Below are positions 1-1,428 of a stretch of 28,904 nucleotides of DNA, piece after piece; position 1 is the stretch's first letter; each line of letters starts with the position of its first letter. The notes beneath the pieces are model-generated. The model was not told the DNA's origin. It ran no database searches and was given only the letters and a program-made list of their open reading frames with translations. Origin of the DNA: a virus (lineage: Duplodnaviria > Heunggongvirae > Uroviricota > Caudoviricetes); IMG/VR virus record IMGVR_UViG_2600254985_000007; one strand, 5' to 3'. Position numbers and translations under genes: made by a program.

Positions 1-471
1 TCAGAACGGTTTGGTCGGCAGATATTTACCATCTAAGGTGATGACCGCACGTTCGCCACCTTCCGGGTCCGCCACTTTCTTAACGTCGAGTTTGAAGTTA
101 ATCGCGCTAATAATGCCATCGCCAAATTTCTCATGAACCAACGCTTTCAGGGTTGTACCGTACACCTGCAACATTTCATAGAAACGATACATCGTTGGGT
201 CAGTTGGAATACGGTCATCAATGCAGCCACGCAGTGGAATCATCTGCAACAGTAGAATGGAGTCTTCGTCGAGATCCAGCTTCGCCCCGACCAGGCGGGC
301 GGCGTCGGCAGGAAGCGCCTGCTGACCCAGCAAAGCCGCGGTTACAAAGGCTTCTGCCAGACCGGTGCCGTCGGCAATCTCGGCAAATGAGAGATCTTTT
401 TTAGCTTTGCTGAGCAAAATGGCATCGGCAAGATCAAGACGAATATTGCGGTTAATTTGTGACTGAATCAT
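1..471 (-). CDS. cynS: cyanase (cyanate hydratase) CynS, full 156-aa frame; host gene forming the 3' part of a 475-aa chimeric ORF
   Basis: Translation from the ATG at 469-471 ([37 protein letters not shown]...[13 protein letters not shown]) matches E. coli cyanase as I recall it. Stop codon at 1-3. No stop separates it from the capsid fragment upstream. Confidence 0.8.
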
Positions 472-1428
472 GGTGGATTCGCGCGCCGGATCCCCCGACT
501 GCACCCAGTTTTTCGGGTAGCGTGTCGAGGCATTGATACCTTCGCGCTGGGCATCAGCATCAAGAATGCAGCCATAGGTACGCAGGCCACGAGCCTGGGT
601 ATTCCCCAGCACCATTGTCAGGTCCGGCAGATAATTCTTTTTGACGTCGTTTTCGACGTACTGGCCGGAGTACACCACGATTGCCACATCGCCAAACATC
701 CCCTTGTATGAAACAGCCATACCCAGGTCTTTCACGGCAGTTTCCAGCTCAGAGTTAGAACCACGACGCGTATCCAGCTTCTTCTCAACAGCCTTGAAGG
801 AACGGAACAGCGCCCAGCCTTTCGGATCGAACACAATGATGTTGACCACACCGCTGGCGTTGAGCGCGTAGGCTTCAATGTCATCGGTCGGGTCATACGT
901 TTCTTTGTCGCGGGTTGACCATGCAGCCGCACCGGCCTGGACAATGTTGTTACCAGCGCTGCGGCCCATATCGACTTCAACAGGCTCGAACGCTTCCCCG
1001 GTCATGGTGTATTTACCGCTGAGCACCGCCGAAACAGCCTGTTTCTCTTCGACCTGAGCAATCGCCAGCTCTTCATCCTTCATGTTCTGAAGGATAATGC
1101 GGCGACGGCGATAGACCGGGTCAGCGAGATTCTGCGGATCCTCATCCGGCAGGCGGCGGAGAGTCATCAGTGGGTTAACTTCGTGTTTCGGCTTCACATA
1201 ACCCGGCGTGAATTCAGACGTGCTGCCGCCACGGGAGCGGATCACTTTGCCGGAGACAATCGGCGAGACGTAAAGCGCCATATTGACCAGGCCAGGAATT
1301 TGCGACAGGTAAACCTTCTCTGTACTGAAGGGATAGGTTTCGCGGAAAAAGATACGCAGGAAAAGCGGATCGAATTTGAATTTCTTCTCATTGACCGCCA
1401 GCAGTTGGGCAGTGGTGTAAACGGACAT
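472..1428 (-). pseudogene. E: major capsid protein, lambda gpE family, 3'-truncated (first ~319 aa) and fused in frame to cynS
   Basis: N-terminus [34 protein letters not shown]... is near-identical to lambda gpE through ...[12 protein letters not shown]. The lambda C-terminal tail is absent and the frame runs on into cynS. Sits directly downstream of the D gene as in lambda. Confidence 0.85.

Follow-up and report, generated by a model that had tools for sequence, protein, structure and literature searches.

The locus examined here raises the question of how the major capsid gene of a lambdoid phage came to be continuous with the cyanase gene of Escherichia coli, and whether the protein that they would jointly encode is made. 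It lies at one end of a 28,904-nt stretch of DNA (hereafter, the window) that spans the cynS stop codon to the start codon of a phage integrase gene. The original prediction, made from the letters alone, had proposed an in-frame fusion of the two genes at a short shared sequence, within a defective prophage decaying beside the native cyn locus. The first part of this proposal was confirmed, and the second proved to be wrong.

The fused reading frame and its genomic setting

The frame opens with an ATG, is uninterrupted for 475 codons and consists of residues 1-319 of φ80 gp8 followed by the complete CynS (residues 1-156). Residues 1-323 are those of φ80 gp8, which is 341 residues long when intact, apart from a single F318S substitution, and residues 320-475 are those of MG1655 CynS without any change. 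Window 1-471 does not differ from MG1655 cynS at any nucleotide, and the cynS coding sequence is thus intact. In gp8, by contrast, the last 18 of the 341 residues are replaced, and the native C-terminus is absent. A Pfam search recognized Phage_cap_E at residues 5-324 (profile positions 1-313 of 329), CYNS_N at 330-398 and Cyanate_lyase at 407-472. The RefSeq annotation has cynS here, together with a pseudogene for a truncated major capsid protein. We also considered a capsid protein that naturally carries a C-terminal extension; this was rejected, as the corresponding genes of φ80, mEp237, HK225 and N15 all stop 18 codons past the shared peptide T-M-I-Q-S. The fusion ORF is real.

The whole window matches positions 1349816-1378719 of E. 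coli K-12 DH10B (NC_010473.1) with no mismatch, and its phage part matches φ80 (JX871397) with no mismatch over 28,428 nt, from the start of int through cos to codon 318 of gene 8. The order of genes in DH10B is kch-att-int...gene 8'-cynS-cynX-lacA-lacY-lacZ-lacI-mhpR-mhpABC-mhpD'-Tn3-family transposon (Tn1000/γδ of F)-kch'-yciI, with kch intact on the int side of the element and a truncated copy of it on the yciI side. The lacZ gene on the element is 2,982 nt long, which is the ΔM15 size; since wild-type lacZ has 3,075 nt, 93 nt are missing. The window is the defective prophage φ80dlacZΔM15, located at att80 between kch and yciI.

This assignment agrees with the gene content. A contiguous φ80 segment is present (att-int, immunity, replication, lysis, cos and head genes; Table 1), and lac with ΔM15 adjoins phage DNA at att80, away from its native locus. 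The φ80 coordinates absent from the element (~7,120-24,622) hold FI, FII, Z, U, V, G, T, H, M, L, K, I, J and the tail fibres, and no tail module was found either in the window or at the DH10B locus. The predicted picture of a prophage that has lost its tail genes but keeps those for immunity, replication, lysis and packaging therefore holds when the window is set against φ80 and DH10B; judged by its gene content, the element is defective for essential virion genes and would depend on a helper. A dam-like methylase gene at 26348-27233 (+) is frameshifted and is a pseudogene in both the φ80 reference and DH10B. Because the reference carries the same lesion, the frameshift belongs to φ80 itself and not to the defective prophage.

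Published work had already placed this cynS away from its original position. In DH5α, cynS-mhpC sits on the φ80d insertion, and PCR confirmed that the same genes are deleted from the native locus as part of Δ(argF-lac)169 (PMC5105096). The cynS-mhpD segment was later measured at 12,762 bp; Tn1000, a duplicate of kch measuring 1,006 bp and another att80 come after it, and the element was traced to φ80lac, transducing phages from the work of Beckwith and Signer (1966) (PMC11148124). The cynS gene of the window is an ectopic copy, carried together with lac, mhp and Tn1000 DNA from an integrated F'lac.

A junction-spanning query matched 57 of the 5,426 complete E. coli genomes at full length and 100% identity. 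Going by their names or declared sources, the 57 carriers are without exception laboratory cloning strains or their derivatives, including DH5α, DH10B, TOP10, JM83, EPI300, HST04, NEB 5-alpha, NEB 10-beta, GB2005 and a 'laboratory developed' series, a distribution restricted to the lineage of recipient laboratory strains, as is expected of φ80dlacZΔM15. In two laboratory strains, XL10-Gold (NZ_CP081008.1) and JCL301 (NZ_CP107281.1), the gene 8-FI region of φ80 is intact and shows 100% identity to the phage over a 241-nt query, in keeping with the way in which φ80/Lula is known to have spread, either as a contaminant of laboratories or as a deliberate lysogen.

Table 1. Features of the 28,904-nt window
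Feature	Position	Strand	Basis
Chimeric ORF, gp8 1-319 + CynS 1-156	1..1428	-	ORF, alignment, Pfam
Complete cynS, 156 codons + stop	1..471	-	Identical to K-12 MG1655
Recombination joint, 16-nt φ80/cynS identity CACCATGATTCAGTCA	460..475	.	Alignments; PMC11148124
φ80 gene 8 codons 1-319 (lambda E-like major capsid); last 18 of 341 codons gone	472..1428	-	
Single cyn-type base, coding-strand C (TCC, Ser318) versus T (TTC, Phe318) in reference φ80	476..476	.	
Hairpin + T-run between gene 7 (decoration) and gene 8	1442..1462	-	Sequence; annotation of relatives
φ80 head/packaging genes kept: decoration, S49 protease/scaffold, portal, W-like head-tail joining, large and small terminase	1496..7399	-	
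cos cohesive-end site, 12 nt	7577..7588	.	Coordinate transfer from JX871397
φ80 early/lysis/immunity remainder, identical to JX871397; includes rha, Rz/lysozyme/holin, Q-like gp17, nin region, replication genes 14 and 15, cII, cro-like gene, N, kil, gam, recT, exo, frameshifted dam and xis	7647..28904	.	
cI	18426-19136	+	
int	27711-28904	-	

The joint and base 476

Three-way alignments, in which φ80 gene 8 and the MG1655 cynT-cynS spacer were set against the window, showed that gene 8 and the start of cynS have 16 nt in common at the joint (coding strand, CACCATGATTCAGTCA), which encode T319-M320-I321-Q322-S323. The predicted switch on the T-M-I-Q-S codons (460-474) thus falls inside the identity. 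The reading frame is kept by an accident, namely that these codons are common to both parents. The joint itself is already known: many sequences of it have been determined since 2008, and in 2024 it was explicitly presented as a 16-bp overlap at the Met320 codon that connects the φ80 major capsid protein to cynS-mhpD (PMC11148124). To that description we add a homology of 17 of 18 bases, the loss of the cynS Shine-Dalgarno sequence and a single excision that would give the unit of 48,378 bp.

In a rebuilt hypothetical ancestor, the host segment was compared with the phage for every direct exact match of 12 nt or more. Among these matches between the 46-kb phage and the 21.7-kb host segment from cynR to kch', the 16-mer of the joint is the longest, the runner-up being 14 nt, and chance alone would give approximately 0.23 matches of 16 nt. 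The identity lies exactly at the switch and exceeds the chance expectation, which upholds the prediction that the head-completion and tail genes were lost by illegitimate recombination at a short homology.

The homology extends slightly beyond the 16-mer. Window position 476 is the sole mismatch to JX871397 in the whole phage part, and the base found there is that of the cyn spacer, giving the F318S change. Position 477 (T) is common to both parents and position 478 is specific to the phage. Because a cyn-type base at 476 is followed by a shared base at 477 and a phage base at 478, the parental switch lies just 5' of the 16-mer, between 476 and 478, and the interacting stretch is 18 nt long with 17 matching bases. 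The exchange therefore probably used these 17 of 18 matching bases.

Two explanations of base 476 were weighed. In the favoured one, a heteroduplex formed over the 17 of 18 bases and was resolved to the cyn base. In the other, which is possible, the parental φ80 carried the TCC variant and the 18-nt identity was perfect. The T form is found in mEp237, HK225, N15 and Phi06_2987S, as well as in the laboratory φ80 prophages of XL10-Gold and JCL301. An exact-pattern scan of viral_contigs recovered an intact gene 8 with the T form from 18 viral contigs and none with the C form. The same scan of genome_contigs gave no C form, but the T-form control also gave none, so this result is uninformative. 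FN582354, a second, partial φ80 sequence in the databases, does have C at 476; it differs from the window at eight further positions, all within gene 8. A φ80 polymorphism as the source of base 476 is thus an ambiguous case, in which the evidence leans towards a cyn-derived base.

Formation of the element and fate of the fused frame

We interpret the joint as the novel joint of a classical defective specialized transducing phage, φ80dlac, which was later made lacZΔM15 and is now carried as an att80 prophage in K-12 cloning strains, and we put the probability of this reading at roughly 0.93. An F'lac had integrated adjoining att80, inside kch, by means of Tn1000, and codon 319/320 of gene 8 was joined to cynS by recombination in the 18-nt stretch (17 of 18 bases matching, 16 of them contiguous). 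A single Campbell-type aberrant excision of the φ80 prophage would have released a circle with the order cynS-cynX-lacAYZI-mhpR..D'-Tn1000-kch'-att-int...cos...gene 8'. Such a circle would be without attR, without any head-completion or tail gene and without the final 18 codons of gene 8, and would need a helper phage; its re-integration at kch-att80 of a recipient would generate the kch'/att80 duplication seen today.

This reading was examined on the rebuilt ancestor, which in the coding direction has the order cynR-cynT-cynS-cynX-lac-mhp-Tn1000-kch'-attL-φ80 prophage. A single crossover at the 16-mer in this ancestor gives a circle of exactly 48,378 bp. The same length separates the two att cores of DH10B. 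One φ80 att core is located at 1349616-1349632, 184 bp past the end of the window (attL), and the second, which is attB-like with one mismatch, adjoins yciI at a distance of 48,378 bp from the int-side core. A single base distinguishes the two cores that flank the element (ACACTTTCTTAAATGGT versus ACACTTTCTTAAATTGT; positions 411-427 of DH10B locus L001 on the yciI side and 4617-4633 of L004 on the int side), a difference that fits an attB-type and an attL-type site. The attachment-site loss inferred in the original prediction is therefore true only of the original attR, which is gone; the element still lies between two att80 cores. A third match to the core (16/17), inside the P-loop ATPase gene of Tn1000 (L001 5651-5667), is probably due to chance.

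The att-to-att unit amounts to 104.8% of the 46,150-bp φ80 genome. The upper limit of packaging in lambda is roughly 105%, and the unit is thus packageable and within the size limits of lambdoid phages. In addition, the strain TUM22769 has a closed circular record (NZ_CP188139.1, 'plasmid unnamed1') of 48,378 bp that holds the whole window (1-28904). This points to an ability of the defective prophage, or of its kch'/att direct repeat, to leave the chromosome and be seen as an episome when the background is of the DH5α type.

One-step aberrant excision is the most economical reading that we infer, although the order of events is not recoverable from sequence alone. A multi-step route has been published for JM83, in which insertion of F'lac into kch duplicates kch'-att80-yciI, φ80 enters the first att80, an in situ deletion joins gene 8 to cynS at the expense of the tail genes, of attR, of F and of some of the F' insert, and the element is later mobilized between att sites (PMC11148124). 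This route yields exactly the observed structure from the same 16-nt homology, and we regard it as a possible but rather unlikely course of events. It requires that 1 kb or more was duplicated, in a way left unexplained, where the F' inserted, whereas integration of a kch'-att circle makes the duplication automatically; the element also had to travel into later strains as a phage particle, and the one-step circle equals the 48,378-bp unit exactly. None of these points is decisive.

A different question is whether the fused frame has any effect in the strains that carry it. Gene 8 is part of the late operon, and this operon requires the Q-like gp17 and pR'. A GC-rich hairpin precedes gene 8 (Table 1), and mEp237, HK225 and N15 have a rho-independent terminator annotated at the equivalent position; our consensus terminator scan missed this hairpin at 1442-1462, and FN582354 has a promoter and a transcription start annotated in the gene 7-gene 8 spacer instead. 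Upstream of the cynS ATG, MG1655 has AGGAG with a 7-nt spacer, whereas the window has GCGCG from gene 8. The element carries neither cynT nor cynR nor the cyn promoter, and cynS has thus lost the ribosome-binding site, promoter and regulator of a functional cyn gene. Translation of cynS from its own ATG, put forward in the original prediction, is accordingly less likely than was assumed, both AGGAG and the cynT promoter having lain upstream of the crossover, and a free-standing CynS is unlikely to be made efficiently. A late operon that is silent in the lysogen, the terminator hairpin and the lost promoter and ribosome-binding site make the chimera probably silent. Most likely, as far as these sequence features can tell, it is an unexpressed by-product with no selected function.

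That the gp8-CynS protein is nevertheless made and matters, either by supplying cyanase or by acting as a dominant-negative capsid subunit against φ80-type helper or superinfecting phages, appears improbable to us. The frame is open over 475 codons with both domains recognizable, FN582354 places its promoter just upstream of gene 8, and cynS is among the genes dysregulated in a DH10B derivative, but repression of the late operon in lysogens, the terminator ahead of gene 8 and the missing cyn signals and partner genes all speak against it. Moreover, the single laboratory event that produced the joint took place under selection for lac transduction and not for a chimeric protein. Cyanase is a decamer and may not tolerate an N-terminal extension of 319 residues. 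Still less probable is a conditional form of the idea, in which gp8(1-319)-CynS may be made when the late operon is switched on (by helper infection, SOS induction or RacR-type cross-talk) and may act as a dominant-negative subunit or as a cyanase displayed on procapsids; if this were true, the most widely used cloning strains would have an unnoticed phenotype towards φ80/Lula-type phages.

The dysregulation mentioned above comes from the transcriptome of an evolved DH10B derivative, in which the mhp (3-hydroxycinnamate) pathway, lacZ and cynS were among the five most dysregulated pathways (bioRxiv 10.1101/2024.07.31.606091). We observed that mhp, lacZ and cynS all lie on the host segment of φ80d (mhpD'..cynS, L001 7415-20172). 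Their joint dysregulation would fit a change in copy number or an induction of the element, rather than separate regulation of the pathways.

The setting of the element bears also on the idea that a natural prophage was degraded by an in situ deletion running from the capsid gene into an adjoining native cyn operon. A junction with the form of a short-homology deletion, in a prophage without tail genes, is what this idea predicts. However, we consider it very improbable, as the element occupies att80, with kch and yciI on either side, a long way from the native cyn-lac locus, which is itself deleted in the carrier strains; its host segment stops in mhpD', against which Tn1000 from F abuts, and the kch duplicate comes next; the unit is of packageable size; and the carriers are laboratory strains only. 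Finally, an artefact that joined phage and host contigs at the 16-mer has a negligible probability: short common sequences can mislead assemblers and an early short-read assembly of DH5α did misplace cynS-mhpC (PMC5105096), but misassembly is excluded because the junction is spanned with 100% identity by 57 separately deposited complete genomes, including the PacBio sequence of NEB 5-alpha, and furthermore the DH5α context was checked by PCR (PMC5105096) and the joint is also present on the closed 48,378-bp circle.

Relation to known systems

The joint is an artefact of laboratory work in the 1960s, a textbook joint of specialized transduction, and matters little for discovery. It has, nevertheless, a practical side. 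In DH5α, DH10B and TOP10, the only copies of cynS, cynX, lacIYA and mhpRABC are on a 48.4-kb excisable phage element, and cynS has no promoter, ribosome-binding site or cynT partner there. Shifts in the expression or copy number of genes borne on the element in these strains should be read as behaviour of the φ80d element.

The window shows no sequence difference from φ80dlacZΔM15 (φ80d[ΔlacZ58(M15)]), the prophage of DH10B, DH5α, JM83 and TOP10. Compared with φ80 gp8 (Pfam Phage_cap_E; kin of lambda gpE and N15 gp8), the chimera is the same over residues 1-323 except for F318S, but it lacks the C-terminal 18 residues (APLMLLPDPDAFVSVKLA) and has 152 foreign residues in their place. Its 156 cyanase codons are identical to those of MG1655 cynS, and cynX lies downstream as in the E. 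coli cynTSX operon. In contrast to that operon, cynT, cynR, the cyn promoter and the AGGAG ribosome-binding site are missing, and cynS is read through from a phage late gene. The closest parallel for the mode of formation is provided by the λdgal-type phages of the Campbell model, in which host DNA from the int side likewise replaces late genes at the far end through an illegitimate joint at a short homology, and which, as φ80dlac, are of packageable size and dependent on a helper. Two features distinguish φ80dlac from λdgal: its host DNA is not the native flank of the att site but a lac-cyn-mhp segment brought there by an integrated F' with Tn1000, and its joint fell by chance inside two coding regions with the reading frame kept.
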